A stretch of DNA of 64,000 nt from Mytilus trossulus (GCF_036588685.1 NC_086374.1:46190001-46254000), one strand, 5' to 3'. Numbered from the stretch's first letter, positions 6,402-46,258 are shown. The notes: generated by a model not told the origin, from the letters alone. Program-made: numbers and translations.

Positions 6402-9400
6402 ATGCACTTATTTATTTTGATTTTGCTCACTGCAGATTTAGTGTATGTTAACAGGTCAGTACATGTATGTAATATATATTCACTTTGACTTACACAAAAA
6501 GAAATAAACGACAGAATAAATTGCGTATGCACCAATAGGGAGTTATCATTGATTTAATAGTCATAAGGTTACATGAGCGGTTTTAAGTTTCAATTTATAA
6601 CATTAAAATGCATCTTTTTGACCGCCTTAAATATATTTCTGGCAATTTTCTGTCTCCGAGAGAAGGAATATCTGACCATGGGAAGAGACGTGCTGAAAAT
6701 CAATAAACATCGAGAATGAAAAGTGTCAGTTAGAACAATATTTTAATGGTTATCCACGTTTTCATGAATTGCCAAGAAAATTTAAATCTTTTCTGGTACA
6801 TGAGCAATTGGAAAGCGTCAAGATTGTCTTATGCAATCGAAAAATTTAAACGCGTGTCTTTTAAGTGTTATCGGGGTCAGCTGTTAGGGAGCTGAGTTCA
6901 GATTTAAAAAGAAAGACTCACCAAAACCCATTTTTCTTTTAAAAATTACAAATTACTCAAAGTCAGTCAAGTATAAGAAGTAATATATGTATTTCATTTT
7001 AGCCAAACGACACAAGGGTACAATCTGAAAGCTTTGAGCGTCAAGGAGTTTTTACGGTTTGATGGCAATCATGATGGAACCATTACTTTAAGCGAATGGG
7101 AAAGTGTTCTAAGAGGAGACGATGATAATGGTAAGTCAATTAAATGCTCAGTGGAAACGGTGATGTTGGTAGGTACGGTATGTGCTCAAAAGGGACGATG
7201 GTAATGGTAGATACAGTTTATGCTCATAGGAGACGACAATGTCTGAATGTACAGAATTTTCTCACAAGAGACGATAGATGACGGTAGGTACAGCAAGTTC
7301 TCAGTAAAGACGATGACAATAGGTACGATATATGTTCAGAGGAAACGACGATGTTTTATATATGTAGTCTTTGCTCAGAGGAGACTTTTGAGATAAAGTA
7401 TGTGCTCAGAGGAGACAAGGATGACGTTAGGTACAAAATTGGCTAAGTAAAGTTGACGTTGACAGAATATGCAGAAGAGATAATGAGAAGGCAAGATTTC
7501 CATTTTAGTAACTTAGACGTGATCTTTATAGCTAATTTAATAGATTTCGGTTAAAAAAAACGTTTGTGACGTAATTAATTAAATTTAGCCAACCTCTATG
7601 TTACTAATACATCTTTGTCACTGTGTGAGTTGGGGTTTTTTGTTTGTTATTGACGACTTAACTTTATTGGCAAGTACAGTTTTCAATGATAGCTTATTAT
7701 TTATACACACTGTCCATCATGTAATGTATTACACATTTGTTATTCTATAAAATATTTTAAAAATAATAATATTCCGAAATAGTAAAATAATTTGAATATT
7801 TATTTCCCCGTATGTCTTATTTTCTGTATGAATATTTTCATAATTGCATGCCCTGAAAGAGATAATTTTGGTTGGATACTTGATATTATTTCTACGCCAA
7901 CAAAATTGCATTTTCCCAACAGGTGACGGAATCATAACTTGCGACGAGTATGTTCGTCATTCCACATCACCACATGACATTGCTTTGGGAGTACTGAACC
8001 AATTCAATGGCGGCGATTGTAAGTTAACGCACGATGAAGGACTGGTTCCATATCACCACATGGACGGAAACGGTAAATTTTAACTTATATTTTGAGTGTA
8101 AGCCAGGTGATGCGCCTTTGACTCAGTGTTGTAGTAGGTTAAGCATTATCATCTATTAAATTTTTATTGTTAAAGTACAATAAACTTTTATTTCAATTAG
8201 TATTATTATGAAAAGGGATGAAAATCAGGATATAAATGTAAAATAAGACTTAATAAATTATATGCGCCCAGAGCATTCTTTTTGGATGATCTCCATCAGG
8301 AACGCTCAGAACCAAATATTTAAAAGCCAATGAAGTTCAGATACACGAAAAGAGAAACAAGTAACTCTAAGGTAACATTTAAAAGAAAACACACCATGGC
8401 ATAAAAAGAATACGAAAAGTCCACAAAAAACTACACAGGCTACAATATCAGGCAACTCGAGCCCACCAAAGTACATATGGCAGATACTCAGATTCTTCAG
8501 ACGCTCCTACTCGAATAATGACACTTGTTGTGTTGTTCATGGGAAGGTAAAGTACTGTAATAAATTCCTGTCTGATGGGTCACAATCAAAAGAATCTTTT
8601 AAAAACGTCTGTGAAATTATTAACACCAGTCATACAAATGTTAATGACTCTAACTTACTCTTCAGAGCCCCTGATGTAAAGTTTTCAATGTACTAAACAT
8701 TAATCTCCTCTCAAAATAATCATTGTAGGAAAGTCTTGTATTATAGAACTACTTATAGGGAAATATTTACTTCATATTTAGGTTCTGTTAGTATGTTGTT
8801 GCATAGACATGGAAAATTCCTAATAATAGAATAACTAAAATCGTATTTCTTGACGCAAAGTTATGTGTTAGGTCATTATCAAAGCTGGAATGATCCCTCT
8901 TTATAAATTTAGATTTTTTTTTAATCTTGTTTAAATGGTGCTTTAAGAAAAGAATATACAATTTTTTTATTTATTTCAGGGGATGGGATTCTTCAAGAGA
9001 TTGAGTTTATAAATTTCTACATTCAGGTAAATTTTCTTGAGAACTTTAAAACTGTTCATAGTTTTATTGCTCATTCAGCATACCAATTAATGTGTTTATA
9101 TTCTATTATTTTTATAAAATTTAATAAATGTATTGTTATTTATCATTATTAACACCTTCAAAACAAAAAGACATGAATCGTCACTATGAAGTTTTATATA
9201 CAGATTGAAATGGAAATAATTTTGTCCTTGTTTTGTTTGTTTTAAATCAGTCATCACCATCTTGTTGTATGTTGGATACCAATTTTGGTTGGTTTTGTTG
9301 GTATAGGTGAACCAAAGATTTGAATATTCAACGAATTACAAATTGTTCATAGGCTTGTAAATGCCGACTGTTGCCAAAAGCAGAAAATAAAAAAACATAA

Positions 9401-9617
9401 AAATGCGTTTTCCCTTATATCGACGAAAATTGGTACCCACTTAAATAAACAAATCAACGGTATACATGTTGTGTCGATATTTGTGTAGTGTCTTTTGATT
9501 ATTTTTCGTCGTTGGGTTACGGTTTCCAAATATCTTAACACATCATATTTCTTTTTATTTCAGGTTTTGAAAAATCTTGGACTTACTGATCATGGACAAA
9601 CAACAAAGAGCACTTGA
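6402..9617 (+). CDS. Secreted EF-hand calcium-binding protein, paralog 1 (143 aa; resembles molluscan secreted EF-hand / shell-matrix IMSP5-like proteins)
   Basis: Coding exons are 6402-6454, 7003-7130, 7923-8072, 8980-9026 and 9564-9617. All introns are GT-AG with phases 2,1,1,0. Protein: MHLFILILLTADLVYVNSQTTQGYNLKALSVKEFLRFDGNHDGTITLSEWESVLRGDDDNGDGIITCDEYVRHSTSPHDIALGVLNQFNGGDCKLTHDEGLVPYHHMDGNGDGILQEIEFINFYIQVLKNLGLTDHGQTTKST*. It has a hydrophobic signal peptide and DxNxDG loops. AATAAA at 9617-9622 overlaps the stop codon. Confidence 0.88.
7109..7445 (+). repeat. Degenerate ~38-bp tandem repeat (about 8-9 units) derived from the coding exon 2 / intron 2 junction of EF-hand paralog 1
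   Basis: Units start at 7109, 7147, 7185, 7223, 7261, 7300, about 7335, 7374 and 7405. The consensus is approximately CTCAGAGGAGACGATGATAATGGTAGGTACAGTATGTG. The first unit is the real exon end plus its donor site. Confidence 0.75.
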
Positions 9618-11158
9618 ATAAAAGATATTTTGATTAAACCATGTCATTGTTACATGTAATGGTCATTGGTTTTACTATCATGTCGATATTGTTAATGCTA
9701 TGAAAGTTTACTACGACCTCAGGTTGACCATAAAATTTTATTTTATAATGTGATAATTATTCATGACGAGAGGGAAACAACGGGTGCCACCAATGAAGCA
9801 GAAACTACAAACCATAATGGAGAACATGAGTTTACTCGTAGTTTTGGTTGTGGTTCGTGTAGCTTATTGTAATGTTTGATTTTTTGTAGTTTTCTTTTTG
9901 GTTCTGGTGTTGTCTTCTATTATAGGACTTTTGATTTACATAATGGGTATATTTTCTCTGTCTTTTCTCAATTATACAGGTCTCACTTGAAATATCACTA
10001 TCACTATCTGGTTGAAATCTAGTTGAAATCTGGTATTATTGTTTGGTGCTACATCGTGGTCCCAAGTAAATAATGACCATTTGAATTGAATTGTTAAATC
10101 GTCCATATAAATGTTTCAGTGAAATGAAAGTCAAAGTTGCTGGAAAGTGAATATTACAAGATAAACATTCGTTTGTTTCAACCAAATGAATGTATAACAA
10201 AAGATACATATGAAAAGCCTTATGCATGATTGAACCAATAAACTATATAAATAATATGAAGATGTGTACGTTTTTTTCTTTCTTTCTATTCTGTGCCATC
10301 GACTCCCCTACTGTATCTCGACTCTCTACTTATAAGACTTATAAGAATTTCAGAGTGTATAGAAACTAGCATTACACACAAAACTTACTTCAAAATATGT
10401 TATATTTATCCTTTTTTAGAAGAGAAAGGTAGCGAGGAAGTCTCAGATAACATAAATTACAATATCTGTAGTTGGCACAAACATATTAACCTTGTTAGCT
10501 TATGGTAAATAAATTCGACCAAATGTCATTTCCTACAAAAGTGTAAAAGACCGAAGTTTTACCGAAAGTGGAAATCGATTGACAAAGATTATAAAAATAA
10601 CTATTAGCTGAAATATTCCGTCAGCAACGAATGCAAATTTATATTGTTGTTGAGCAATTGCAGATGCATTTAAAACATTATTAAGACGGTATAAATAATT
10701 CATTTATTATCAACTGTAAATCTTTAAAAATATGTTTGTTTCTTTCGTCATATTAAAATACTTGAAAAAAAAAAAAGGAAAAAGTAAAAGAATTAATCTA
10801 CTTTGGAACAAGACATATTTTGGGATCATATTGTTAATGAGGTGAGGTGCTTATACATATACACTTATGTCATTGTCACACGTTGACCTTGACATATGAT
10901 CTTCTGTGTCAGAGTAAGCTTTTAATTATTGAGACGTTTTCGTGCAGTGGATATTATTAGGCCGTAGTACATAGAGATTTCGAAATAAATCAGACTGACG
11001 TTGCTCCAATGGCGATTGTCGTGCCTTATCAATATAATGCATTTAAATTCTAATTCGTAAACTCAAACGAACATAAAATATTTATCAAATAACCACAAAC
11101 TCTTACATGGGAGACGCCACTTGCAGAGACAAGCGCACATTTTATTATAAATATGAGT

Positions 11159-12563
11159 TTAATCACAGAATCCATTTTTAGGCAGAAACATAACAAACAA
11201 ATAACTATTGTGGAAATAACGGCCACAGTTCACTTAGAATGACGAGGTCTGACATGATTACAGAATGCCGACATGCTAGTTTTAACTGACAAATCTGTGC
11301 ACCATTGGTAGCAATGGATGCTCAAGTTCCTCCAGGTTAAATTCTAAAGAGAACGAGGGTTATGATCCCCAAATACGTCGGGTCTTATTCGCATCACCCC
11401 CTGGTTTCAGGGGAGTAAAGATTAACATTTTTTATATTATAAAACACTGAATACATAGGCCATACTATGTATCATTAACAGTCAAGCTCGAACTGGTACC
11501 AATTCAGAACCGGCCACTCAGGGTAGACATGAGATGGTCTCAACAGAACTTCCTGCGGTACCGCAGGAAAGTAAAAACCTAATATGATCCGACGTACAAT
11601 TACGGGAAACGATCATAACCCCTTAATCTTGCCAGATCCCGACATCCTTTTTGACTGTGACGAATGATTTTATTACAAAACAATGAACAATTAGAATCGA
11701 GTAATTAAAATAAATGCTGCATGATTTTTATCCAAATAAAGTCAAAAGTTAAATGCATCTAGGCGAAGAACTAATACCAGGTATTGGTAATTCCATTTTC
11801 GCACTGAATGTGTCTAAATGTTTAGATAAAGGTGGTAGCCATTCATGAAAATTAGCATTGACATAATTATTATAGTTCTCGAGCGTATGGTTCAGCTAGC
11901 AAATCCATCGGCTTGATTGTCTCCTCTTTTTTGTCCAAAAAGTTATGAATCCGGCATGTTCTGGTCATTCTGAAAAGATAAATAAAACAGCAACAGACAC
12001 AAGAATTGTTATAAGATGGCAGATTGCAAGGGGAGGTGGGTGGGTTTTTGAAACTTTTGGTTTATCTTATAAAAGCGATAAACCGTATTAATCACAGAAT
12101 CCATTTTTAGGCAGAAACATAACAAACAAATAACTATTGTGGAAATAACGGCCACAGTTCACTTAGAATGACGAGGTCTGACATGATTACAGAATGCCGA
12201 CATGCTAGTTTTAACTGACAAATCTGTGCACCATTGGTAGCAATGGATGCTCAAGTTCCTCCAGGTTAAATTCTAAAGAGAACGAGGGTTATGATCCCCA
12301 AATACGTCGGGTCTTATTCGCATCACCCCCTGGTTTCAGGGGAGTAAAGATTAACATTTTTTATATTATAAAACACTGAATACATAGGCCATACTATGTA
12401 TCATTAACAGTCAATCTCGAACTGGTACCAATTCAGAACCGGCCACTCAGGGTAGACATGAGATGGTCTCAACAGAACTTCCTGCGGTACCGCAGGAAAG
12501 TAAAAACCTAATATGATCCGACGTACAATTACGGGAAACGATCATAACCCCTTAATCTTGCCA
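11159..12563 (+). repeat. Near-identical 476-bp direct duplication (11159-11634 and 12088-12563)
   Basis: The copies are offset by 929 bp. The only difference I noticed is G11486 versus T12415. Each copy contains an inverted-repeat-bounded segment (AGGGTTATGATC...GATCATAACCCCT) and the perfect palindrome TTCCTGCGGTACCGCAGGAA. Confidence 0.9.
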
Positions 12564-17699: not shown

Positions 17700-20455
17700 A
17701 ATAATAACTGTTACATCTGTAAAACCAACATGTCCAGTGTTTTCCAACAACAAACAGTTCAGTGTCTTCAATAACAACATACCCAGTGTCTCCAACAACA
17801 ACCAGCCAAGTGCCTTTAATTTAACTTGCCCAGTGTTTTCAACGACAACAACCTCAGTGTCTTAAGGGCATACGACACAGTTACAGGGGAGGTAATGACG
17901 TTGCTAAGGTCAAATGTTATTTTCGCGACGTCAAACTATGACATATCGGGAAAAGATGCATGTTTCGACTGATTTTTATCATTCAAACTGATTTAATTTG
18001 AAAACGAGTTCATGGACCCCTATTTTTCAAACCAGCAATTTGTTTCATTTTGCGATTATGTGACCCAAATTTTAAAAAACTGTAAATAGAGGATTTTTTT
18101 AATTTTTGATAAACATGCAGCAAAAAATTACGTATTTTTCAACAATTGAAGAACATTTGATAAATATGAGTTATTTCTGAATAAAAAATGCATAATGTTT
18201 TATGATACTTATAAAATACAGAAATGACCAATTATTTAACAAAAAATAATTTGTGTTTATCCTTTATAACAAAAAAGTTATGTCTTTCTTTCGAAAAAGA
18301 AATTACGGCCACAAATCTGAATTTTGAGCAAATATACCAAATTTCGACCTCATTTTATTCAAAAAGTAGCACATTAAGGTACATTTTTTATTACATATTT
18401 GACTTAATTATGTAAAAAACAGCCTATATGCAAATTTTCACGAACTTGTAAATACAGGATCAAAACTGTATCGTATACCCTTAATAACATCTCCAGTGGC
18501 GTATACAAAAAACTGATCCAGTGTTTTTAACAACAACCAGTCCAATATCTTTAACAACCAGCAGAGAATTTCAACAACCAGCTCAGTGTTTTCAATAACA
18601 ACAAACCCATTGTCTTCAATAACTAAACAACCTGTCGAAAGTCTTCAACAACAATCAGCAGTGTATTCAATAACAACATACACAGTGTTTTCAACAACAA
18701 CCTCACTAGTCTTTTTAACATCAACATGCCCAGTGTCTTGAATAACTACCAGCCAAGAGTTTGTTATAACAACCTACCCAGTGTTTTCAACATCAACATG
18801 TCCAGTGTCTTGATTAACTATCAGTCAAGTGTTTGTAATGACAACCTGCCCAGTGGCTTCAACAACAACCAGCCAAGTCACTGCAAATGTCTTCAACATC
18901 TACCAAACCAATGTCATCAACACCAAGCCCAGTGTATTCAACATTTATCAACCCAATGTCCTCAACACCAAGCTCAGTGTCTTCAATATCTACCAACCCG
19001 ATGTCCTTAACACCAAGCCAACTGCCTACAACATCTACCAACCCAATGTCCTCAACACCAATCCTAGTGTCTTCAATATCTACCAACCGAATGTCCTCAA
19101 CATCAAGCCCAGTGTCGTCAACAACAACTACGTACCAAGAGTCTTCAATAACTACAAGTGCAGTATCTTCAATAAAAACATGTCCAGTTGGTGGTTAATT
19201 ACTTTCAGTCCATTAGCTTTAATTACAAATTGCTACAGTTTCTTCAATAACAACACGCCCGAGCTTCAACAACCTGCCTAGTGGCATAAACAAAGACCTG
19301 CCCATATATTGGAGTCAATAAGAACAAGGCAAGAGTTTTCACCAACAGACTGCCCACAGGCTTTAAAAACAACCTTTCAAGCGGCTTCAATACCAATCCG
19401 CCCAGTGGCGTCTATAACAACCTACCCAGTGGCCTGAATAACAACACACCCAGCTACGTCTACAACTTGTCCATCGGCATCAATAACAACCAGTCTAGTG
19501 GCTTCAACAATAACCAGCCAAGTGTTTTCAACAACAACTTGCCAAGTGGTTTTACAAACAACCAGCCCACTGTCTCCAATACCAACATGCCAAGTGGAGC
19601 CTATATTAACCTGTTCATTGACTTTACAAACAACCTACCCAATGGCTTCAATACCTAATTGCGAAGTGGCGTCAACAACAACCTGTCCATCGGCATCAAT
19701 AATAACCTGTCTGATGGCTTAGATAACTTGTAGCCCATGGCTTGAATAACAACATGCTCAGTGGCTTCAATGTCAACCTGCCCAGTGGCTTTAATAACAA
19801 CGCCCAGTGGCGTCAATAACAACACGCCCTGTCGCGTCAATAACAAACCAATAGGCGCCAATAACAACCTGTCCAGTGGCTTCAACAGCATCTTGCCCAG
19901 TGGCGTCAATAACAACCTGCCCAGTGGCGTCAATAACAACCTGTCAAGTGGCGTTTATAACATCACGTCAATAACAACAGTGGTGTCAATAACAATACGC
20001 CCAGTAATGTCAATAACAAGCCAAGAGGCGTCAAAAACAACCTGTCCCGTGGCTTCAACAGCATCTTGCCCAGTGGCTTTAACATCATCTTGCCCAGTTG
20101 CTTCAATGTCAACCTGCCCAGTGGCTTTAATAACAATGTGCCCAGTGGAGTCACCAACAACTTGCCCGGTGGCGTTAAATAACAACACGCCCAGTGGCGT
20201 CAATAATACGCCAAGAGGTGTCAATAACAAACTGCCCAGTGGCTTCAACAGCATATTGCCCAGTGGCTTCAATATCAACCTGCCAAGTGGCTTTGATAAC
20301 AACACGCCCAGTGGCGTCAATAACAACCTGCCCAGTGGCGTTTATAACATTACGCCCAGAGGTGTCAATGACAACACGCACAATGGTGTCGATAACAACC
20401 TGCAAAGTGGCGTCAATGACACGCCAACAGGCGTCCATAACAACTTGCCCAGTGA
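17700..20455 (+). repeat. AAC-rich degenerate minisatellite array (mainly ~24-bp units, with 45-bp units at about 18890-19110)
   Basis: The recurrent unit is approximately AACAACCTGCCCAGTGGCGTCAAT. It translates as LPSGVNNN or TKPSVFNIYQPNVLN repeats, but with stops, frame switches and a MITE inserted at 17866-18480. Confidence 0.85.
17866..18480. mobile_element. Non-autonomous DNA transposon with TTAA target-site duplication (Kolobok-type MITE)
   Basis: Structure is TTAA|GGGCATACGACACAGTT ... AACTGTATCGTATACCC|TTAA, giving ~17-bp TIRs and TTAA at 17862-17865 and 18481-18484. Purine termini fit Kolobok rather than piggyBac, whose termini begin CCC. Confidence 0.85.
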
Positions 20456-20794
20456 GTTAGTACTTATTAAAAATCTGATGTATACTGAACTGGATACCAC
20501 GGAAAAAGGTCTTAGAACTGAATGAATTTATTACCAAACGTGTTGTTTAACTACATGTAGGTAAAAAATGGTCCCCTTTTACAAATCCTTTCTCTGGAAT
20601 AGCTTCTGAAACATATTCAGCATTTTTATACAGTTCTTGGTTTTTTTTATATTCAAATGACATGTACTGAATTGTATCTAAATGTTCATTTTATATAATA
20701 AAATTTTATATTCAATATGATGAAAATCCATACATTATGTTAACAATACTTGTCACCTTGATCTTTAAAACGCTCTTGTTACTTGTTTTACTTG

Positions 20795-25302: not shown

Positions 25303-28300
25303 ATGCAGTTGCTCGTCGTATTATCCCTTCTTTTTGGATATGCTTATTGGTAAGTCATAATCGTATTTTTATATACTGCCTTGAAATTCTTGAAAAACTA
25401 AACTCGTTGACTAGATCAACTTTTATCTATGTAGAACAAAATTGATAGGCGACTTTTCATGCACTGAACCAGGATTATAATTTAGTACGCCAGATGCGCG
25501 TTTCGTCTACATAAGACTCATCAGTGACGCTCAAAAAAAAATAAAGCCAAACAAGTACTAAGTTAAAGAGCATTGAGGATCCAAAATTCTTAAAAGTTGT
25601 GCCTAATAAGGCTACGGTTATCTATGTCTGGAATAAGAAAATCCTTAGTTTTTCGAAAAATTCTAATTTTTGTTAACAGGAAATTTATGAAAATGACAAT
25701 ATTTTTGATATTAATGTCAACACCGAAGTGTTGACTACTGGGCTGGTGATACCCTGAGGGACGAAACGCCCAACAGCAGTGGCATCGACCTAGTAAAATA
25801 TGATAGATAAACAGATGCATTTTACAGCAAAACACTTCAAAAGCATAAGATTTACTAAAAGGTCAATCTAATAGATATTGTCAATAGACTCTTTATAGTT
25901 AAACCTCAAGATTTTCAAATAAACAAAGTTAACATTGAAAAAAGGTATATAGTTATTTATAAGAATGAAGATGTGGTAGGATTGCCAATGAGTCAATTTT
26001 GTGAACTAAACAAAATCAACCGAAATATAGCCTAAATTGAAAAAGCGACTATGATCAGTAAAACAATACCTGTAGCAGGAGTCGTTTGATTGAGTATCAA
26101 ACGACTCCTACTTCATTTTCCTAGAATACATAACATTTTCTTAACGAAAATACACACCTATTTGAATACTTAAGATTTGAAAGTCTATATATTCTGCAGT
26201 GTATATTCTCACGAATTTTCTCTTTTTAAATGATTACTACCCTGTTAATTTGACAATTCATTATTTATTAAGCAGTTGCACATGTTAAGTTATATTCATA
26301 ATGAATTTTCTTTCTAATATAAAAAAGAAGATGTGGTATGTCTCGTGAAAATGTAATATATTTAGATCATATATATTGATATATAGATTATAAAGTTTTT
26401 TGTTTTTTTTCAATTTGTTGATTTCAAATTAATAATCTGATGTTCTGTTGTTTTCCTCTTTAAGTAGATGTGGTTTCTTTTGTTATGATTTGTGAACCGG
26501 AATTGTTTTCGCTTGATCGATTTATAACTATTGAACATCGGTATACAACTGTTGCCTTTAATGAAGTTATATCAGGGAAACTAACCCATGAGAAAATCAC
26601 ATGTTCTTGCAAATGCATTGCTTTTTTTCACAGTCAGATCCAAGTCCATGGACATGATTTGAATGTATTGGTAGCTAAAGGGTTTGCTCGTCTTGACACG
26701 AATAAAGACGGAATTTTGGAAGCCAACGAATATGAGGCTGTTTTAAAGGTTGACGACACTAATGGTTTGTGATAATATATAATACATAATTCGATAGGAC
26801 TCCCAAATCGATGGCCGATTTTATACCCCTCTAATCAAAGGTTTTTTTTTCAAATCACAAATTGACGTCCAAATCTTTGACTCACGACTCTGAAAAATAA
26901 AAGGTGAAACAAACATGATAGAATGTTATTTAATCAAATTAATAGTATGTTGTCATTCATTGTCATGTTGTCGTTTTCATAACCCATGTTTGTTCTTTTA
27001 TCTTGTTTAAGGAAGTTCGCTTGTCATATTTTGGATTTTTGTCAAATTTTCGAAATCCCCTGTTTTTATCTATTTTAATGCCTTAAAACAATTCGCCCAT
27101 TGACCCCCATTTTTCTTTTTATGAATCTTTTACATGTATACTTATAAGCCATCTGTAAAAGTCTTATAACACTTTTGTTATTTTTTAACAGTTTTTGAGA
27201 ACTTAAGTGGCTGTCCATGTAAATATCAGGCAAATCCTATGATATGGGTGGCACAACATAATTTTTTCCCCACTGAGTTTTTGGTTCCAATGCAATTTTT
27301 ATATCATACAGAGGATATGTATGTGAAAGATATTTTTGAATCAACAGTGGATGGCTCTGAAAATGATTTTAAAGTTCACTAACAATGCAACCAAATTTTT
27401 TACAAAATGAAGAGTTATCTCCCCTTTTAATGAATTTTCAGTGCTTTCTATGTATTTTTTTTTCTCTTTATTTTTTGCACTTAATAAAATAAAAAAAAAT
27501 AACTTTGAGAAAGAATGAATTTTTGATATGAAATAGATGAACAAATTTTTAAAACAAAATATGTCATGTGCCATCCACTGCCCGGGTTTTCCATGGACAC
27601 CCTCTTAATTAGTTATCAAAGGTACCAGGATTATAATTTAGTACGCCAGACGCGCGTTTCGTCTTCATAAGACTCATCAGTGACACTCAAATCAAAATTT
27701 TTATGAAGCCAAACAAGCACAAAATTGAAGAGCATTGAGGATCCAAAATTCCAAAAAATTGTGCCAAATACGACTAAGGTAATCTATACCTGGAATAAGA
27801 AAATCCTTAGTTTTTCGAAAATTCAAAGTTTTGTAAACAGGAAATTTATAAAAATTACCACATTAATGATATTCATACTACTGGGCTGGTGATACCCTCG
27901 GGGACGAAACGTCCACCAGCAGTGGCATCGACCCAGTGGTGTAAATAGTTATCAAAGGTGTCAATGATAAAGGTCAATGATAAAGCTATCAAAATTAAGA
28001 GAGAACAATGGCTAATATATCGAGAACAAGTACATTTACCTATATTTTATTTTCGCTCATTTGATTCCTTTATTAATCAACGTAAATATATACTGATAAT
28101 ATGAAAAGATTGTTATTTTGAAAATGAGTAACAAACTTCCTTAATTGACTCTTTGGGACGGGAATCTGTCCTGTGTTGTTCATTTTTCATAAGTCAAATA
28201 CGTTAGTATGATTTGTATATATATATGCCGTTTTAGGCGACACAACTTCAAAAACAAAACAATGAATACAAAAGAAATTAGTAAAGACTAAACTGTAAAT

Positions 28301-31300
28301 AAAACGAATTATTATATCATATATAATTCATCGATTAGGGGAGAACCCAATAGTCTATAACCGATTGGACATCTTTTTGTAATTGTAATACATGACGTCA
28401 TAGTTGATTATGATAAGAGAATGAACAATATTTATTGGCGTCATTAATTTCCAATTGTGCGTTTATTTGAAACCGATCAAAAACTTTTTTTAAATACAAG
28501 ATTTTATTTTAAAGTAGATCATAAGTATATAATATTTTAGATAGAATTTTCTTATACTTTGCCAAATTATACTGCGATTGTACAATCCAAGATGGCGGTA
28601 TACCATGGATGTTTAATAGTTATCCCACGATGACGCGGTGTGTCAGTGTAAGATCATCCCGATGGCCGGAGGCAAGAAGCTGATCTAACATTGACACACC
28701 AAGTCCGAGTGTGATAACTATTTTACATCCCAGCTGTTTTAGATTAGACGAAACATCATTTACAATTCATAAAATCTAGTTTAGAACGCCACACAACCAT
28801 TATAATATACTTTATACATTACTGTATGATGTATACCCTTTTTGACACCCGAACAAGATGAGTAGATATCAAACAATGTCAACTCGCTCCAACCTATATC
28901 GCCACTTTATGAAAAAAATCGCCCCACTCTTGTTTACCGACTCGCCCCACTTTTGAAAAAGTGTAAAATAAACTGAAAAATCACTGACAACTCACTTATT
29001 AACGAAAAGGGTTTAAACCCCACTGAATAAAGGTCTGCCAACTCGCCCCACTTATTTAAAATATATTGCTTCCTTTAAGTATGTTAAAGGAGTAGGTTCA
29101 GTAAGGCCCTTTTTTGGCCCCAAAATAGAACAGTTTTACAAAATTGTGAAAATATAATCTTTTAGCTATTTATTTATTGGAAAGAAGAATGCTTCTGCTT
29201 CATAAATATGGACTGTTTTGACCATATCATGCGCATATATCGGATACTAGCATCATAAAGTCATGCTAAATTACTGAAATCTTCACAATTTAAGCATTTT
29301 AGTTAAATTTTAGACGGTTTCCGTCTTAAATGAAAGTTGCGGCATTTGTGTTTATCTATAATATTGAGATGTTAGTTGTATTTGATGATAATACATAACA
29401 TATATGAAGGTTGAGGATGAACACGGATGAGGCCACTTTTATTTTTAACAAAAACCAACTAAAAAGTGACGTTTTTTGGCTTAGATAGATTTTTCATATT
29501 TAAGCTTGAATCTGAGAGTTTTTAATGACTTAATTAGTTAAAATATTTCACATAAACAAATGGAATCAATTTAAATAGACACTTAAGTGTTTAAAAAGTG
29601 TCCAAAATCTTTCGTTAGAAGAACCTGAAATTTGAGGCCAAATTCGACCCTTATCGGACCTACTCCTTACTGACAGTTTGTATCCAGTCGTCCTGGTGTA
29701 GTGGTTGTGTCGTGGCTTGATATGCTAAAGGTCTTGAATTCGAATCCTATTATATACACTGGATTTTTTTCTACGTGAATTTTGATAGATAGTCTTTTCC
29801 GTATAATTGTATATTAATTATAAGTTTTATAGTGGATTTGACATTCCCGCCAAAATGCTACAGAACAAAGGAATGCATGCATAACAAAGAAACACAAACT
29901 GCGGTGATCTGGCAGGGGTGATTCGGCTCAGATCACCCATGTTAGGACAAAGGAGCTGGGATGTAAACCTTAAGACATCGTTACATTGTATTTGTACAGT
30001 TATAATGTTTCTATTATTAAAGGTGACGGAACGATTACCTGTGATGAATACGTAGCTCACTCGTCTGCGCCAAAGGCACTTGCTTTACAAATATTTACGG
30101 CAGTTGACCCTGATCATGACTGTTCTCTTACTCATGCAGAAGCTTTGAGCTTACTTACAAAAATGGACCAAACAGGTATTTGTTTATTTACAGATCATAG
30201 AAAAGTCTAATACAAGTATTGAATAATCTTGGAGATGCGTACTATGACTGTTTTATGTGATATCGACATCATGTATCATGTCTCACATTTAACGGTTGGA
30301 AATGTTGTTTATTTATACCCTTCATTTTGACAAATGAATAGAAAAGATGTTCACATACACATTGGTAAATGAACAGCAGAAGCACTACTGAAATCAGAAA
30401 TACAACGTTACTTATCTCACGCATTTGGAAGTCCAATAATTTTTTTTTATTCCAGACAAATGTTACACGAATTAAAACAACATATTTACAATGAATTTTT
30501 ATACAGAAAATACATATATAGTAGATGAAAAAAAGACCAAACAAAGGCAAAAACTGACACCTACATTATCTAGGAACCCGTGATCAACGCCATCACTGAT
30601 CAAGGAGTTTCTATGCCTAAAATATAGTTATGATAATTACTATGGTAACCAAATGTGCTTGTTGATTTGGTGTATTTATTTTCATGAATATATTTCATAT
30701 TTTCAGGAGATGGACAGGTCAGCGAACATGAGTTTGAACATTTTTACGTTCAGGTAAGACTATAATGGCAACTTCCAGTGCTCAAGATACTGGCCATGTA
30801 TGCATTTCTTTCAAATTCAAAAAAATACCAAAAGCAACATATTGCTTCGATTATGTATGTCATTAATAACAAGAATGTGTCCCAAGTACATGGATGCCCA
30901 ATCCACATTATCATATTCTATGTTCCGTGGACCTTAAAAATGGGGTAAAAACTCTAATTTGGCATTGAAATTACAATGATCATATCATAGGAAATATGTG
31001 TGCGAAGTGTCAAGTTGATTGGACTTCAAAATCATCACAAACTACATCGATCAAAAACTATAACCTGACCTCGACCAAAAACTTTAAACTGAAGAGGGAC
31101 AGACGGACGAACAGACGAACGAACGAACAGACGGACGCACAGACCAGAAAACATAATGCCCATATATGGAACATAAAATTTGAATATCTCTTTTGAATAC
31201 GTCTGTAAATTGCATTTTGATACCTCTATAAATTGCTATTTACGGTTGCTTTTGTATACGACTATATACCGTGCCTACTACAAAGTGGTGTCGTCCTCTT

Positions 31301-34043
31301 GACATCTGTGTGGTTATCTTTGTCATTGGGCGGCTTACTCATTGACGTTGTACCCAAAATATAGTTATGTACAGTTGTATTTGTTTATGTCTGTCATATC
31401 TTAACAGTCATATGTTTACAGACATAATCAAATACAACTGTACATAACAGTATATTTTGGATACAACGTCAATGAACTAGCCACCTAATGACAAAGATAA
31501 CAAACAGGTGTTAATTTAATAGATGCTTTAGTAATTTTTGTAAAAAAAAAATGTTTTATGATTTTAACACAGGGATGACTGCCGTACCCATATTTTGACT
31601 ATTTTATTTATTATGTCTGTTTTGTTCACGCAGCGTTGTAAATATAACGGAATTTGACGAAACTGTCGTACAAGTGAGAGGGTTAGCTCTATAAAACCAG
31701 GTTCATTCCACCATTTTCTACATTTGAAAATGTCTGTACCAAGTCAGGAATATGACAGTTGTTGTCCATATGTTTGATGTGGGGTTTTTTTCATTTGATT
31801 TTGCCATGTGATTAGGGACTTTTCGATTGAATTTTCCTCGGAGTTCAGTAATTTTGTGATTTTACTTTTTTTTGTATGGCAGAAACATCAGCATTAATCT
31901 TTAAAATAACTAATTTATACATATAAAACAGATTTGACAACAATAGTATTCTCCCAATGTTTGAGTATTTTTAATCATGCTTGAACGTAAGACAGGACAG
32001 GAGTTTTGAGTAATGTAAAAAACAGAACAGGAGTTTTGAGTAAAAAAATGCAGAGGGAGCAACTTTTCCAAAAAACGACAGGATGACAATTTATGTTAAA
32101 AGTCAGAATGAACATAGGCGGGACTGACCAAAGCAACACATAATAAGGCAGGACAGAGATAACAATTTCAAAAATACAGGGCAGAAATTTTCATCCTAGA
32201 TCACCCGCCTCCCTCACAAAAAAATCAAGAAAATGAAATTGTAGCTCCCTTTATGAAAATATCATTTTTTAGTACAATAATGTCATGACTTTTGTTTGTT
32301 ATTGGAAATGTTTTTAAGGATGTCTGTGGGTTCGTGGAAACCGCATCGCAGGATCAAATTTATAGCGGCTTCTTTCCGACTTTTAAGTCCCAGTAGTGAA
32401 TACATATTGTTAAAATAGTATTAGTATTCTTATCGAAATACTTTCTTTCAACACTCACACACAGACACACACTTATATATATATATATATAATCGTTTGT
32501 ATAGCAGCGTGGACAACCGCATTACTTTTTTTTTTATTTTAAATGATACTGAATCATTTACCTGTAACTCTTTTGTCATCGGCTATCTATGGTGAGTCTT
32601 GTGTGGACAAGGCGCGTTTTTGGCGTATTGAATTTTAAACCTGATGCTTTTGTTATCTATTAATCATGTTTTTCTTTGTCTAATATGTTCTCCTATGTAT
32701 TTTTATTGTAGTCCTGTAATATTATGTTGTCATTTCAATGTTTTATTTAACTTTGCCATTAAAGTGCGAGGTTTGGCATGCCACAAAACCAGGTTCAACC
32801 CATCACTTTTATTCCCCTTTAAAAATGTCCTGTACCAAGTCAGGAAGATGGCCATTGTTATATTATTGTTCGTTTCTGTGTGTGTTGCATTTTAACGTTG
32901 AGTCGTTTGTGTTTTCTCTTATTTTTGAGATATTGAGATAAGACGTGGCACGGTACTTGTCTCTCCCAAATTCATGTATTTGGTTTTAATGTTATATTTG
33001 TTATTCTCGTGGTGTTTTGTCTGATGCTTGGTCCGTTTCGGTGTTGTGTCGTTGTTCTCCTCTTATACTTAATGCGTTTCCCTCGGTTTTAGTTTGTTAC
33101 CCCGATTTTGTTTTTTGTCCATGGATTTATGAGTTTTGAACAGCGGTATACTACTGTTGCCTTTATCTATCTTTAACAGTAATTTACGCTCATTCAGTGT
33201 GTCAGAGCTTCAAATAGTGATTAAAATAGAATAAAAGAGTAAAGTACATGCAAATGAACGAGAAAAAAATGAAAGTTTAAGGATGCAACATTTAAATCAA
33301 CACACAAGGTTTAGTCCTCTGCACGTTATTCGTATGATTTGATTTAGGCGTTTATAACCTTTAGTAGCAACCCCACAGTTTAAATGTCTGTAACACGTTC
33401 GATATGAAAAGTGGGTGTTACAGACGAATGTTCACCCAATCTGACCCAGTCAATTGATAACCGGAGCGCGCCAAAAAAAATCTTGTCCACGTTATTATGA
33501 AAATTATTCTATTTACATATGGCCTGCCGAAGGCTATTTGTTCAGCTGAATTATTTGTCAAAACGATTTTATTACGTTATCTTCATATATTATCATTTAT
33601 TTGAATACCGTTGCGCAATTTTTTAAACTTTGTAACATTTTCCGTATTTGCGCAGCATCGTCCTGTACATATTAAATTTGTTGTTCGGTTATTTTCTATA
33701 GACCTAGATGTTTCATCTCAAATTTAACCAAACATTGTACTAAGATCACTTACTTTGTGTTAGAAAGTTTTGTTTTTCCCTCAGCGGGGTTCGGACATTT
33801 CCGTCTGTGACATTGTTGCAATATTTCCTGAACCGTTATCAACGCCCTACTTTTGGACCACTTTGGCTACATAAAAAAATATAGCTTTCGGGGGTAGATT
33901 TACATGTAATGACTTTGTTCGTTGATTTAATCTAGCGTTGTTTATAATTGTTCAAGATCGAAACAAAATTATATTATATGTTTTTTTTTCAGATCTTGAA
34001 ACACCTCGGTCACGTGGACCATGGTCACCAAGTAGTGGGTTGA
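25303..34043 (+). CDS. Secreted EF-hand calcium-binding protein, paralog 2 (142 aa, His-rich)
   Basis: Coding exons are 25303-25349, 26634-26764, 30023-30175, 30707-30753 and 33993-34043. Introns are GT-AG with phases 2,1,1,0, identical to paralogs 1 and 3. Protein: MQLLVVLSLLFGYAYCQIQVHGHDLNVLVAKGFARLDTNKDGILEANEYEAVLKVDDTNGDGTITCDEYVAHSSAPKALALQIFTAVDPDHDCSLTHAEALSLLTKMDQTGDGQVSEHEFEHFYVQILKHLGHVDHGHQVVG*. Confidence 0.9.
27207..27604. mobile_element. TTAA-flanked MITE (Kolobok-type)
   Basis: Structure is TTAA|GTGGCTGTCCATGTAAATATCAGGCA ... TGCCCGGGTTTTCCATGGACACCCTC|TTAA, with imperfect ~25-bp TIRs. Confidence 0.7.
27610..27959 (+). repeat. High-copy dispersed repeat family (AAGGTACCAGGATTATAATTTAGTACGCCAGACGCGCGTTTCGTC...)
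   Basis: Related copies lie at about 25468-25795 (+), 40805-40950 (+), 41153-41270 (+), 59212-59480 (-), 32594-32645 (-) and 63965-64000 (-). This copy begins and ends with TAGTTATCAAAGGT. Confidence 0.8.
29088..29667. mobile_element. MITE with imperfect TIRs, probably Kolobok-type, nested in an older repeat
   Basis: Structure is TTAA|AGGAGTAGGTTCAGTAAGG ... CCTTATCGGACCTACTCCT. The right target-site duplication is degenerate. Confidence 0.7.
30868..31178 (+). mobile_element. Helentron-associated non-autonomous element (pearl/CvA/DINE-like)
   Basis: It starts AACAAGAATGTGTCC, contains a GACA/GACG/GAAC tetranucleotide microsatellite at about 31098-31143, and ends with an imperfect hairpin ATGCCCATATATGGAACAT followed by an A run. 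This matches the architecture of bivalve pearl/CvA-type elements. Confidence 0.7.
31302..31511. repeat. Long inverted repeat (~90-bp arms, ~25-bp loop) in intron 4 of EF-hand paralog 2
   Basis: GTTATCTTTGTCATTGGG...CATTGACGTTGTACCCAAAATATA...GTTATGTACAGTTGTATTTG...TTATGTCTGT pairs with ACAGACATAA...CAAATACAACTGTACATAAC...TATATTTTGGATACAACGTCAATG...CCTAATGACAAAGATAAC. Confidence 0.85.
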
Positions 34044-35356
34044 TCTGTAAGTTCTATGTTGATTATGATTATTAACATTATTCAATGTTGTTTTCTTGTA
34101 TTATATTTATTTCTGAACACAAAAAGATACTATTACCATAAAAACTTTATCACACAGAATGTATAAGATATTGTCCTACTTTAACCGTTCGTAGACTTTT
34201 TAGCCCCTTAAAACATTTTATTTGAAATGCACTACAGACGGAAAATCGGCCTCACCAAATACTTTTTTCAATCTAAATGCAACTTTGGCTGAGGGAGTTG
34301 AAACCTTAGTTACTTATAATTTCAAAACTTATAAACGAACAATTTTTAAATGTTTTCTTATAAGATAAGATGAATAAGTACAAGCTGATAATATCATGGG
34401 GACTGATGGTTCTGTAATAAATGAAGCTACACGATACAAATTTCAAGCATTTGAAAACCAAGGATATTTAAGAACCTAATCAGTTGGAAAGCTTTATTAC
34501 CAAACATGACATCAGCAAATAGCAATATTAATATTATGTATACTCCGCATGGGGATGTTGTTTGTTGTTTGGACTACTGAAAGACAAAACAAGAAGAATA
34601 TTTACCAAAAGAACCGTGGTATAACATAGTCAAAGTCATTCGAGAAATAGCTGTGCTATATAAGGATCATAAATTAGATAATTAAACTGCAATAATATAA
34701 CAGAAGCTTAGAAAATAGCGGTAAATTAGAATAAAAAGTAACAGTAGCAGTACCAGAGAAGTGGTAACAGTTGCAGTACAAGTAGAAGCTGCATTCGTTG
34801 TAGAAGCAATATTCATACCTTTTCTTCCTCTATTCCTCTAGATCTGTTTTTGGTGTTTCTTTTTCGTCCACTTATTAGAATTTCATTTTTCAATGTTGTA
34901 AAGGTTTAAATAAACATAAAATGGACGATTGTATTTGTTTTGTTTGTCAAATACTATTTCATATCACCTTTTTTTCATATGATATAATAATAACAAACGC
35001 ACGATATTCAACATTTCATATTTCAGCTCTCCTTACTAAAGCGACATGATACCAAATAGGAGTCAGACCAAGTTTTAATAAAGGACTAGCATTATATCCT
35101 TAGATTTGTTCTTTCGATTTTAATAGCATGATGACTTAAAAAGAAGGGGGCGAAAGATACCAGAGTCAAACTCATAGATCGAAAACAAACTGACAACGCC
35201 TTTGCTTAAAACGAAACAGACAAAAAGACAAATAAATATTATAGTACACATGATACGAGAGGGAAAATGGATTCGAGAATTAGTAAAAAGTTGTTATCTG
35301 TAATTATAAAATGAACTAATGAACTTGATGGTTCAGATATTTTGTCAAATGCAGTG

Positions 35357-35541
35357 ATATCATAAACAGTCACGGCCATTAATACACAACTGAGTCTCAT
35401 ATCGTGTAAAGGATAATTTCACAAGCGGTCACGGCCATTAATACACATCACCTGAGTCTCGTACCGTATACTGGATAATATCACAAGCGGCCAGAGCTAT
35501 TACTACACGCCACCTGAGTCTCGCACCGTGTAATGGATAAT
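35357..35541 (+). repeat. ~60-bp tandem repeat, 3 units
   Basis: The unit is approximately ATATCACAAGCGGTCACGGCCATTAATACACATCACCTGAGTCTCGTACCGTGTAATGGATA. Confidence 0.75.
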
Positions 35542-41642: not shown

Positions 41643-41717
41643 TATAAATACACCTTCAACCATTGTGACATTAACCATTTGTGATCAATATTTTAAGAAA
41701 GAGGAGAATATTGTAAA
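41643..41717 (+). promoter_or_regulatory. Candidate TATA box and short non-coding first exon of EF-hand paralog 3
   Basis: TATAAATA lies at 41643, and an AAA|GTAAGA donor lies at 41718. The first coding exon is preceded by an acceptor (TTCACAG, AG at 42676-42677) only 6 nt upstream of the ATG, which implies an upstream UTR exon. Confidence 0.4.
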
Positions 41718-42683
41718 GTAAGAATATATTTATTTTCTATGCTTATTTTAGATCGTTTTTGCAGAATCGTTTCAAATTATTTTCATAATTAGTGTATGCT
41801 GTTGGTATAATTTTTATAAACAAGTGCCAAATAGGAAAAGTGTGGCTATTCGTCATGCTGTTTGGTATCGGCTTTGAGCTATTATCCTAACACTCTTGAG
41901 ATGACATGCAGAAGTTCATTACAAAAAAAAACGTGTGCGCATATAATCACCGGTATCGCTCAAATGCTTATACGAGAGTCATACTGCCAAATACCATAAA
42001 ACATGTGGACATTTGTCAGTCTTAATCTGAGAACTTGCATCTTAGATAATATCATTGCCAAAAACGAATTTCGGCACAACTGGTCGTTTTACTGGTAAAA
42101 CAAATACCAGTGACACTAGTTATGAAGACGAATTATAATTTCGAAAAGGATATGGTTCTTTTTGTTCAAGTACAGTGTATACGTATTTTTTTGTATGTTT
42201 ATATAATGGTAGATTAATAAAGTGATACCTGGTTTTAAAAAAGTTATTTCCTACTTTCCGTAAATGAGCATATTTAAGCAGTGTTGTTGATATTTTATAA
42301 TCGATGTTGATAAGTTGTTGCATATAACATAGCAGTACCAAAATGTTATGCTTTGTTCAGTTTTATGAATATTTTACGTTTTACCAGATACATTCATTTC
42401 ATTAAGTAGATTACTCATGAAAGACATTAAGCTAATAAATTATTAAGTTAGACGCTCGTTTTCTGCTTCGTACTAGTATAGCAACTCAAATACGAAGCTG
42501 AAGAGCATTAAAAAAAACTAAAATTTCAAAAAGACGTGCCCATTACGACTAAGAAAATCCCTGTCTTATGTCGAAAATCCGGAGTGTTTCGAAAAATAAA
42601 TAATGATTAACAGCAAAATAACTGATAACTACCTTGTAAATGATTTAACCGAAGATTATGTACTTTTATATTCACAGATCAGA

Positions 42684-45600
42684 ATGAAACTGATACTTGC
42701 TTTGTCTCTGTTTCTTGGATATGTCACTTGGTATGTATGATGAAAAAATTATGCTTTATAAATTGTGAACGTACGAAGTACTTTTTGAGACTAAGCTTAA
42801 CCAGGAACGCTCAAACCGGAACATTTAAAAGCCAATTATTTAAACAGGCAAAGACATGTAAAAGCGTATAACATACACGGCATTAAAAGAAGAGCCAAAA
42901 TTCTTTTATGGACGATTTAACCTGAGATTCCCAGTAGTTCCTTAAATTTTTAACAGGGAATTTTAAAACATAATGGTTTAATTTTTGAATTGTTGTTTGG
43001 ATGGAGAGTTGTCTCATTGGCACTCACACCACATCTTCCTATATCTATATGTTATAAATCGTGTCCGTACCCAAGCACTGACTATTGCGCTAGTTATTAA
43101 TTCAGAGACTAACAGATCTAGTACGGCGTAATTTTATTTATTTTTTTCTAAATTCTGCTATTGGATCTAGATAACATGTCGAATGCAAGTAAAATATGTT
43201 AGGTTGTTACAATTTTTTCAACAAAGAAGCGCAGAAAAATTGATTACAATGCATATAATTGACGAGAGCATCTATATTTTTTATAATTATGTTTCCCTAT
43301 TACATCAAACTGAATAATACTATATTTAAAATCATTGCAAGGTTTTTATTAATCAGAATAAGACGACTTAGTAAAAAGTAGAAAAGTAGATAAATTGAAA
43401 ACGAAAAATTCCCTAATCAAATGGCAAAATCAAAGGCTTACACACACCAAACGAATGGATAAAAATCTGGGTATTTTTATCTGCGTTTTATTAGTAGTCT
43501 AACTAAGCCTAACCCTTTGAGTCCAAGCCTTGCAGTTTGTTAAATTATGTGTTTCCGAATTTGTTTCAAAGGATTTACAATTAGCCCGTTCAAATCAGTT
43601 GAGAGGAGGTTTAGCGCTATTAAATTTACCAATGTTCTACATTTGAAAATGCCTGTACCAAAGTCAGAAATATGACAGTTGTTGTCCGTTCGTTTGATGT
43701 GTTTTATCATTTATTTTGCCACTTGATTAGGGAGTTTCCGTTTCAAATTTTACCGCGGAGTTCGGTATTTTTGTGATTTTACTTCCTTTTGTTTTTGTTT
43801 TGCAGTCAGACTATCCATGGTCATGAACTGAAAGTATTGGCTCAGAGTCAGTTTAATGGCTTTGATCACAATCACAATGGTATTCTAGAGATGGACGAAT
43901 TTGAAGCTTCTGTCCATGGCACTGACACCAATGGTTTGTATTCTTACATCATTTGTGGAATATTGTCTCGTGAATTTTGAAATGACAAAATACTATAAAT
44001 TCATTTAAAAAAAATCAACCGTGAAATGTTAACAAGACAGCGGTCATTGAGATACACAAGTAATACTTCTTTTTATTTTTGTTTTACACATTTGCTCATT
44101 CATACTTTTAAACGTCTTATATTAGAGAATATCGAGCTTTAAAATTTTCAGGAAATAATTGATTTATGGTTATAATCAGGAAAAAATACACATTAAGAAA
44201 AATATAAATTCATCATAGATATCATGATAACAATTTTGTACAAAAGACCCAAAAAAAGCTTAAACCAGAAAAATTACGAAAATTAAATACCATTGACAGT
44301 TCTTAGGTTTATTTAAGTATAATAAAGTGGTTAGTTAGTTGCAAATGAATATATAAACTTTGAAAATAATAGAAACATTTAACTTTCTCTTAAAATGTCT
44401 TCTTTAAACCCACGAAGACATGCAGTTTCTTATTAAAGTTTTTAAATTGCCGAACATGTAATATGTTTTTATATACAAGACTCCAATATCATTTAGTACA
44501 CAGTAAAGGGTTTAATTAGTGGCGTATTCAACAATTTTGACAAAATCATGACATTGTGCAATACAATGCCAAAATATTATTACATTATATATATTGGCAG
44601 GATGTAAGATCAGGAGTTTTCAACTTCGTACTTTATTTGGTCATTTTTACTTTATTTTATTCGCGCTACAACGATGAGTCTTATGCATATTAAAATCAAA
44701 TTAGATTTAAAATTATTTCACAGGTGATGGAAACGTAACTTGTGCTGAATATGCCGCTGCAACTTCTCAGCCACATGCTCTAGCACTTGAGATTTTCCAC
44801 CATTATGATCAAGATGGAGATTGTATCATGAGTCATGCAGATGCATTGGCTACACTTCGTCAAATCGACTCAAACGGTAGTTATGTATTAATTTTACACC
44901 TTATATGAGAAAGCCAGATTTTGATTGGTTGATAGCCAGAGTATTTTTCGCATATTCTAATATTTGTTCCTTATTTCAAACAAATTTACCTGTTTTTCAC
45001 CACTGCCGGAGAATTTGTCTCAAAAACCATGGATAATCCTTTTTTTTACCCTCTCGAGTATCTTCCCGCCAAACATTTTCGGAGATAACTTTACATTAAA
45101 ATGCGAGCTAACGCGTAATAGTACATGTATATTTCCCGCGGTTTTATGATAATTCCTCTTATCCTCAAAATTATGCATAAACATGTTAATGAATTATAGC
45201 TTTCAATTAGTAAAAGATATCTTCACCGTTACAAAGAGTTTCATTCCAAATCTATTCGGTGTAATTAAACAGATATATCATGTTATGGAGAGGTATTACC
45301 CGTCTTGGGACTGAATTTCCCTAGCTCGACTAGCTGCAATGAAAATTTTACAGTCCCTTGACTGGTATTTTTCGCAAATACCCTTCCATAACATAATATA
45401 TCTGTTCAAAATGCGAAATTATTTTAAGTAAAAAGCTATTCGCAATCGTCTTGTATTTTTTTAAATTGATTTGTTATCGTTTTATTCCGCCATATTTTTT
45501 CTCCAGTTTCTCCCAATTTCTTTGTCTACAAATCCAATATTTGATAACAATTCTCACGCAAAGAGAAAACGGATATATTTATATCTGTAGTTATGAACTT

Positions 45601-46258
45601 TATAAGTAGAATATTCTCTCATTTGTTGCATTCAAGTTTTCAACCAAGTGCGGTAAAGACACTACAAAGGTTACCAAAATGTATTTTCCGTTGAGCCATC
45701 TAAGCTTTGTCACAAATTATTTCTTTAATGGCAAAATTGGAACGAAGAAGCAAATCTATGCTTAGATGACAAAATTGCAAACAAATACTTCAAGAAATAA
45801 AAAAAAAAATAAACAAAATCTGTTTTAACAGGTGATGGAACTGTGAATGAACACGAGTTTGAACATTATTACACACAGGTAAAGTATAAATAATTTACAT
45901 TGGCAGCACATATTGTTCGATACAACATTTATTTCTATTAATTGCACATGTATTTTTTTTAAATTTGTGATAATTTTGAATTTGAGTGAATTAAAGCATT
46001 TGGATTTAATGTTAGAACTTTTATTAGAGTTTAGAGTAAAAGATGCTTTAATCATTTGATTTTGCTATTTGATAAGGAACTTTCCGTTTTAAATTTTCCT
46101 CGGAGTTCAGTATTTTTGTGATTTTACTAAATGGTATTGAGTAAACTTTTTATTTGTTTGACAAATCTACTAGTATGTGATTATATTTATTTATTGTTTG
46201 TCATCTGTAGATAATGAAGCATCTTGGACATATTCCTCACGGCCATAATGGAAGATAA
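42684..46258 (+). CDS. Secreted EF-hand calcium-binding protein, paralog 3 (140 aa, 15 His)
   Basis: Coding exons are 42684-42730, 43806-43933, 44724-44876, 45832-45878 and 46211-46258. Introns are GT-AG with phases 2,1,1,0. Protein: MKLILALSLFLGYVTCQTIHGHELKVLAQSQFNGFDHNHNGILEMDEFEASVHGTDTNGDGNVTCAEYAAATSQPHALALEIFHHYDQDGDCIMSHADALATLRQIDSNGDGTVNEHEFEHYYTQIMKHLGHIPHGHNGR*. Confidence 0.9.

Follow-up and report, generated by a model that had tools for sequence, protein, structure and literature searches.

Small secreted EF-hand proteins are already known from molluscs, and two of them are the closest described counterparts of the genes considered here. According to the accessible part of its report (PMC10741955), the abalone protein Hdh-SMP5 is 134 amino acids (aa) long with a 16-residue signal peptide, its loops lie at 36, 56 and 112 and its isoelectric point (pI) is 4.31; it is mantle-enriched and increases after shell damage. 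Meanwhile, the accessible part of a preprint presents an IMSP5-like gene as a marker of oyster mantle epithelial cells (bioRxiv 10.64898/2026.05.15.723513). In this study, we analysed 64,000 nucleotides (nt) of the 1.30 Gb genome of Mytilus trossulus (G000:C2:46,190,001-46,254,000; this whole stretch is called the window), in which three intact paralogs, g1, g2 and g3, stand in tandem at positions 6402-46258, from the ATG of g1 (6402) to the stop of g3 (46258). Their products likely belong, as judged from their sequences, to the IMSP5/SMP5-like family, being set beside IMSP5 and Hdh-SMP5 by description rather than by direct alignment. We propose, with chances judged about even, that these are IMSP5/SMP5-like proteins encoded in tandem and secreted, whose nested EF-hand pairs would be held by Ca2+ and a disulfide, and that the histidines at the ends of g2 and g3 would bind Zn2+/Cu2+ outside the cell.

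The array, its transcripts and its family

As listed below, each paralog was modelled as five coding exons separated by GT-AG introns in phases 2, 1, 1, 0. This organisation had been proposed in the original prediction, and it held throughout: all three models closed, and joining the exons at the splice sites left no internal stops in the g1, g2 or g3 reading frames.

6402..6454, + strand: g1 coding exon 1, signal peptide (gene model and RNA contigs; exon start at about 6339, downstream of an intron in the 5' untranslated region, UTR)
7003..7130, + strand: g1 exon 2, Gln start, EF1 and beginning of the EF2 loop (gene model and RNA contigs)
7923..8072, + strand: g1 exon 3, Cys67 and degenerate EF3 with Cys93 (gene model and RNA contigs)
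8980..9026, + strand: g1 exon 4, remainder of EF4 (gene model and RNA contigs)
9564..9617, + strand: g1 exon 5, tail with one His, stop (gene model; RNA joint not seen)
25303..25349, + strand: g2 coding exon 1, signal peptide (gene model; the spliced product is P0006)
26634..26764, + strand: g2 exon 2, Gln17, VHGH and EF1 (37-48) (gene model; loose RNA contig ends)
30023..30175, + strand: g2 exon 3, Cys66 and EF3 (88-99) with Pro89 and Cys93 (gene model and RNA contigs)
30707..30753, + strand: g2 exon 4, EF4 (108-119) and EHEFEH (gene model and RNA contigs)
33993..34043, + strand: g2 exon 5, HLGHVDHGH tail, terminal Gly, stop (gene model and RNA contigs)
42684..42730, + strand: g3 coding exon 1, signal peptide (gene model and RNA contigs; 5' UTR exon ends at 41717)
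43806..43933, + strand: g3 exon 2, Gln17, IHGH and EF1 (gene model and RNA contigs)
44724..44876, + strand: g3 exon 3, Cys65 and EF3 with Cys92 (gene model and RNA contigs)
45832..45878, + strand: g3 exon 4, EF4 and EHEFEH (gene model and RNA contigs)
46211..46258, + strand: g3 exon 5, HLGHIPHGH tail, terminal Gly-Arg, stop (gene model and RNA contigs; the spliced product is P0164)

The mapping of RNA to the junctions, as proposed earlier, drew on contigs from public runs, mostly without a tissue label, and at least nine of the 12 coding introns were found to be joined at the modelled sites. In g3, intron 1 was joined in at least three of four runs, introns 2 and 3 in all four, and intron 4 in at least two; introns 3 and 4 of g2 were joined in at least three of four. 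For these two genes the counts refer to joints among those listed, and g2 intron 1 lay outside the stretches examined; g2 intron 2 was represented only by loose contig ends reading exon 2. As for g1, intron 1 was joined in run X1, intron 2 in three of four runs and intron 3 in X2, no intron 4 joint was seen in the RNA contigs of four runs, and spliced g1 was not seen in run X10. UTR introns also appeared in the contigs, and a 3' UTR intron of g2 lies at 34047-35026, after exon 5. An in-frame ATG at 6378, upstream of the g1 start, was ACG in the contigs of runs X1 and X6. The depth of contigs, which reached about 25,000 at the g3 joints in X2, was not taken as a ranking of expression. Spliced g2 and g3 contigs were present in X14, the only run with a tissue label on record, which is recorded as an invertebrate-gut metatranscriptome (one study), and this gut library gives a lead that expression of g2 and g3 is not confined to the mantle.

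The g2 and g3 proteins were identical, letter for letter, to the RefSeq M. trossulus entries LOC134707395 and LOC134707396, both labelled 'uncharacterized'; the concern that automated annotation could miss the array was thus wrong for these two. A fused M. coruscus gene model contained g1, g2 and g3 in unchanged order, additional g2-type copies were found in M. galloprovincialis and M. californianus, and the Mytilus orthologs were 84-96% identical. In M. trossulus, a fourth paralog lies on the minus strand of another sequence, C5, at about 21,417,980-21,428,915 (L009, L010); it has the same Cys pair, no N-terminal His, open exons 2-5, a GC donor at intron 3 and a tentative exon 1 placement. 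No further array copies were found within 20 kb upstream or 10 kb downstream. Searches of the M. trossulus genome with distant members gave no match for P0092 and only g3 exon 3 for P0098, and because these searches were insensitive, four copies are a lower bound. Local duplication of the paralogs, which share 62/144, 54/144 and 75/142 residues in pairwise comparison, was supported.

The encoded proteins have 143 (g1), 142 (g2) and 140 (g3) aa and an acidic mature pI of 4.66-5.19. Their hydrophobic N-termini (best 9-mer 3.0-3.3 by hydropathy) argue for the signal peptide that had been predicted, there is no KDEL/HDEL end, and the proteins are almost certainly secreted, as far as sequence can tell. 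EF-loop motifs occurred four times in the six frames of the window and in none of 30 shuffles serving as a chance control, and the Pfam EF-hand_1 scores of g2 (54.3 bits) and g3 (48.3 bits; cut-off 25.4) placed them in the EF-hand superfamily. The claim of four EF-type loops per paralog stood with regard to the motifs and had to be qualified for EF3: in g1 this loop is degenerate, with Asn in position 1 and a deletion of one residue, and in g3 its position 12 is occupied by Asp; EF3 of g2 has Pro at loop position 2, which is found in neither g1 nor g3. The inter-loop gaps are 8/19/8 residues, with loops 1 and 2 of g2 starting at 37 and 57. Introns 2 and 3 interrupt EF2 and EF4 at an identical loop position, which suggests an old internal duplication.

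Homologs were collected by a search of 1.84 billion representatives and a profile search, short signal-bearing matches being kept, and long bacterial multi-EF proteins and calmodulins set aside. Short full-length homologs were found in Dreissena, Mactra, Mercenaria, Ruditapes, Mya, Sinanodonta, oysters, Haliotis and Lingula, and the spacing of loop starts (20-21 / 30-35 / 19-23) was common to all 33 tabulated homolog rows. P0092, automatically named IMSP5-like in RefSeq, matched over residues 7-138 (E 5.6e-12), and in the ESM Atlas g2 sits with mollusc-dominated EF-hand clusters (0.92-0.94). Like g1-g3, IMSP5/SMP5-like proteins have a signal peptide of about 16 residues and no ER (endoplasmic reticulum)-retention end, judged in g1-g3 by hydropathy and C-termini, and are acidic proteins of 130-145 aa with a weak third loop. 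Against the loop positions in the accessible description of Hdh-SMP5, loops 1 and 2 start at 36/56 versus 37/57 in g2, 20 residues apart in both, and loop 1 to loop 4 spans 76 versus 71 residues. The homologs thus fall in the IMSP5/SMP5-like family, and the earlier view of the array as a system apart was not supported. Two family modules in one chain were observed in P0075 (Dreissena), P0030 (Haliotis) and P0086 (Lingula).

Other known systems share parts of this design. The SPARC EC domain and S100 proteins have EF-hands that work outside the cell, the former together with a disulfide and the latter with Zn sites made of His, whereas g1-g3 have no 14-residue pseudo-EF loop and have four loops instead of two. 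SPARC itself was rejected, as SPARC_Ca_bdg (PF10591) scored 18.4 bits, below the cut-off of 22, with no follistatin or other domain. CREC proteins of the ER lumen, which have about 300 aa, 6-7 EF-hands and often an HDEL-type end, were also rejected, given the 140-143 aa, four loops and C-terminal ends TTKST, HQVVG and GHNGR of g1, g2 and g3. Lanmodulin (Methylorubrum extorquens, 6MI5), like g1-g3, is a small exported protein with four EF loops on short linkers; in the accessible parts of two reports, its adjacent EF-hands are 12-13 residues apart (PMC10232371), and EF1-EF2 are linked by one helix with EF2/EF3 close (PMC13738343). Its other hallmarks are a Pro in position 2 of one or more loops, a fold built as a three-helix bundle and an affinity for lanthanides in the picomolar range.

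Predicted nested fold and the cysteine pair

An AlphaFold2 model of g2, built with 39 sequences, had a predicted local distance difference test (pLDDT) score of 85 and a predicted template modelling (pTM) score of 0.76, and displayed six helices and four short strands (43-44, 63-65, 94-96 and 115-116). A single calmodulin-type lobe, that of CRACR2a (6psd), aligned across model residues 21-130 (73 residues, Z 9.5, root-mean-square deviation (rmsd) 1.4), and a centrin lobe (5d43) spanned residues 21-132 (77 residues, Z 10.0, rmsd 1.9). When residues 61-110 were folded alone, the only strands were equal to 63-65 and 94-96, and all 50 of 50 residues aligned to a lobe (rmsd 1.8). The spread of the lobe alignments over the whole model points to pairing of EF1 with EF4 around an insert, and the retention of the inner strands and lobe alignment by the isolated segment points to pairing of EF2 with EF3. 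The outer and inner pairs would thus each superpose on one calmodulin-type lobe in a predicted nested fold, of which the alignment ranges give the end points only. Calmodulin carries its two lobes in series, whereas in the g2 model they are nested and share helices, in a protein that is likely secreted. No solved structure covering the whole nested fold at low rmsd was among the matches listed, Foldseek returned no match against the PDB at E <= 0.001, and PDB sequence searches gave generic EF-hand matches only.

As originally predicted, all three paralogs have two Cys per mature chain, one in position 10 of the EF2 loop and one in position 6 of the EF3 loop (C67/C93 in g1, C66/C93 in g2, C65/C92 in g3). 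With an antiparallel register about loop position 8 (63:96, 64:95, 65:94), the next cross-strand pair in the model is Cys66:Cys93, which places both residues at facing positions of the EF2/EF3 sheet and makes the predicted Cys66-Cys93 disulfide very probable. Conservation was assessed in 19 rows of less than 70% identity, out of 39 in alignment A3, with P0014 and P0190 grouped by tree position. The Cys pair turned out to mark the Mytilus group rather than the family: it was present in 4/4 Mytilus-group rows and in none of the remaining rows. Ligand positions 1/5/12 of EF1, EF2 and EF4 are largely kept across the 19 rows. Tree support for the Mytilus group was 98/98 with full sequences and 93/92, unstarred, with the core alone. 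Other bivalve rows have different Cys pairs, placed at loop positions 7/7 or on either side of the His tail, and disulfides were therefore gained on more than one occasion. In a heterodont subgroup (P0031, P0044, P0064 and P0074), EF3 position 12 is His, Phe or similar, and two Cys flank the His tail, possibly closing a His loop by a disulfide.

In a canonical EF lobe, the first and last helices pack against each other, so that His21/23 would be expected near His130/133, and both His-bearing chain ends should be brought together; this placement comes from lobe geometry, not from coordinates.

Histidine ends and proposed metal binding

The His clusters predicted at both ends of g2 and g3 were all confirmed (VHGH/IHGH, HLGHxxHGH, and additionally EHEFEH), with totals of 11 and 15 His; g1 has 8 and no N-terminal His. 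Their conservation extends well beyond Mytilus. The His23 column was His in 14/16 non-redundant bivalve rows (12/12 non-Mytilus, 2/4 Mytilus-group), and the His136 column in 13/16 (11/12 and 2/4), whereas the three non-bivalve rows, from Haliotis and Lingula, had no His at either end, the two retrieved Haliotis homologs thus lacking the clusters of g2 and g3. The terminal His are, as the alignment suggests, apparently an undescribed bivalve-wide variant of a known family. In addition, 12/19 homolog rows ended in G, GK or GR, which we take to be a C-terminal amidation signal, versus 23/195 other matches (the rows are related and the tails Gly-rich); g1 lacks such an end, and these endings were not found described for the homologs in the literature. 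Literature searches by locus id, by peptide motif and by Mytilus with EF-hand and metal-binding found nothing, and no study was found that deals with g1-g3, their His ends or the nested fold, most subscription papers, including the IMSP5 paper, lying outside coverage.

In the mechanism that we propose, the signal peptide would be cut ahead of Gln, and Ca-rich extracellular fluid would keep the loops filled, Ca2+ acting, in line with general EF-hand chemistry, as a structural brace and not as a signal. EF1/EF4 and EF2/EF3 would pair via two shared short helices, as in the model, and lobe geometry would let the N-terminal HGH adjoin the end of the last helix and the HLGH..HGH tail. The resulting His patch might act as a buffer or carrier for transition metals in fluids secreted by epithelia, e.g. 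extrapallial fluid, mucus or gut fluid, and g1 and the C5 paralog, with most of the patch lost, would be mainly Ca binders. Of the separate elements, Ca binding is highly likely from the loop sequences, Zn/Cu/Ni binding in vitro is probable given the model, and Zn/Cu/Ni binding as the physiological job is a plausible suggestion to which we lean slightly less than halfway.

The closest rival is that these are plain shell-matrix Ca binders from mantle cells, gathering Ca2+ or steering CaCO3 growth, with His incidental or a packaging aid. Such a role is suggested by the acidic mature pI of 4.7-5.2 and, in the accessible parts of the sources, by the mantle enrichment and shell-damage response of Hdh-SMP5 (PMC10741955) and by the IMSP5-like marker of oyster mantle epithelium (bioRxiv 10.64898/2026.05.15.723513). 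It would leave unexplained why His23 is kept, column-specifically, across oysters, heterodonts and a unionid; spliced g2 and g3 occurred in the gut metatranscriptome X14 (one study), and the shell-proteome comparison proposed earlier found no match to g1-g3 motifs in five supplementary files of the M. galloprovincialis shell proteome (PMC4517812). We regard this explanation as rather unlikely; shell, mucus or byssus proteome tables beyond those examined could contain these proteins.

It is less probable still that the terminal His serve as a switch responding to pH or as a metal cross-link, taking up protons inside acidic secretory granules and, at seawater pH, connecting molecules by His-Zn/Cu bridges. 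Such His-metal cross-linking is found in byssal collagens, His-Gly repeats occur at both termini here, and the initial Gln together with the endings of amidation type would suit release from regulated granules, but the model is compact and globular with short tails, there is no repetitive or fibrous domain, and no evidence for foot expression was found in runs mostly lacking a tissue label. Antimicrobial metal withholding in mucus or haemolymph, whereby the Ca-loaded protein would starve microbes of Zn, Mn or Ni like S100 calprotectin, is about as improbable, if not slightly more so. The combination of EF-hands with a His patch, the paralog expansion with variation in g2 copy number across Mytilus, and the presence in gut run X14 would fit it; S100 features, however, are absent, and orthologs at 84-96% identity across Mytilus show no rapid immune-type change. 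A lanmodulin-like binder of trivalent ions, whose short-linked loops prefer lanthanides over Ca2+, is very unlikely: the four EF loops on short single-helix links, the size below 200 aa, weak full-stretch sequence matches (8fns, E 0.0028; 6mi5, E 0.0036) and Pro at position 2 of g2 EF3 recall it, but the gaps of 8/19/8 differ from 12-13, calmodulins and Entamoeba CaBP score equally or better, the g2 model has six helices, and g1 and g3 have no Pro2. Lanmodulin was not among the best 50 structural matches, an absence that does not prove the folds to be different, and the resemblance lies in loop pairing and probably arose by convergence.

Several points weigh against extracellular metal binding by the nested, His-ended proteins, our preferred reading. 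Metal binding is argued from sequence and model; model confidence is low in the tails (the final two blocks have pLDDT values of 70 and 42), and Z scores of 9-10 rank as moderate for a helical fold. His conservation may be overstated, as a His-rich query favours His-bearing matches, the related homolog rows are not independent, and the tail alignment is of low complexity. N-terminal His is missing in 2/4 Mytilus paralogs, making the patch dispensable there. Most runs have no tissue given, the placement beside IMSP5 and Hdh-SMP5 is by description, and the empty shell-proteome search counts here as well.

A bolder version of the metal-binding proposal is tentative at best: on a nested four-EF scaffold with loops paired in a lanmodulin-like way, bivalves would have evolved a family of secreted metal scavengers capped by pyroglutamate and a C-terminal amide, and the two ends of each chain would build one His-rich Zn/Cu site switched on by the loading of Ca2+. 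Were it true, it would amount to an unrecognised main extracellular transition-metal route in mussels, clams and oysters, whose paralogs would have been tuned as His and different disulfides were gained and lost. Bivalves, which take up much Zn and Cu, routinely serve as sentinels of pollution, and IMSP5-type proteins carry a 'shell protein' label with no biochemistry behind it in the literature examined. With a protein of 14 kDa whose natural paralogs are either rich (g2, g3) or poor (g1, C5) in His, the metal question can be tested directly, and the predicted nested fold could be used as a small scaffold for several metals. Should the His ends have no function, the array would be an ordinary expansion of a known family within one lineage.

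As a separate observation, an IMSP5-annotated larval transcript of M. californianus changes with copper in the accessible part of its report (PMC8696127; up according to the text, with log values of -3.3 and -2.8 in the table); this transcript carries no id, could not be linked to g1-g3 and was not used as support. Oyster homolog ids were not found in the covered part of a Zn/Cu supplement.

Surroundings of the array

On the minus strand, window positions 3059-3691 contain an exon of a DNA/RNA non-specific endonuclease (PF01223, endonuclease G-like), and positions 47923-60198 a multi-exon sulfatase gene (PF00884 on the 59833-60198 frame), whose span includes a 52-nt tandem repeat of 37 copies with 92% matches at 53203-55123. 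No Rfam matches were found in the window. Two segments, 11159-11634 and 12088-12563, form a 476-bp direct duplication of 99.8% identity, either a very recent copy or an assembly artefact. Between g1 and g2, a degenerate 24-nt repeat at 17700-20500 reads as Asn-rich 8-residue units in frames of up to 259 aa and has stops in all six frames; it is either a satellite or a decayed repeat gene. Furthermore, 20 kb upstream of the window, a large inverted repeat (L015/L014) has arms with near-identical open frames of 134-207 aa and is possibly a DNA transposon.

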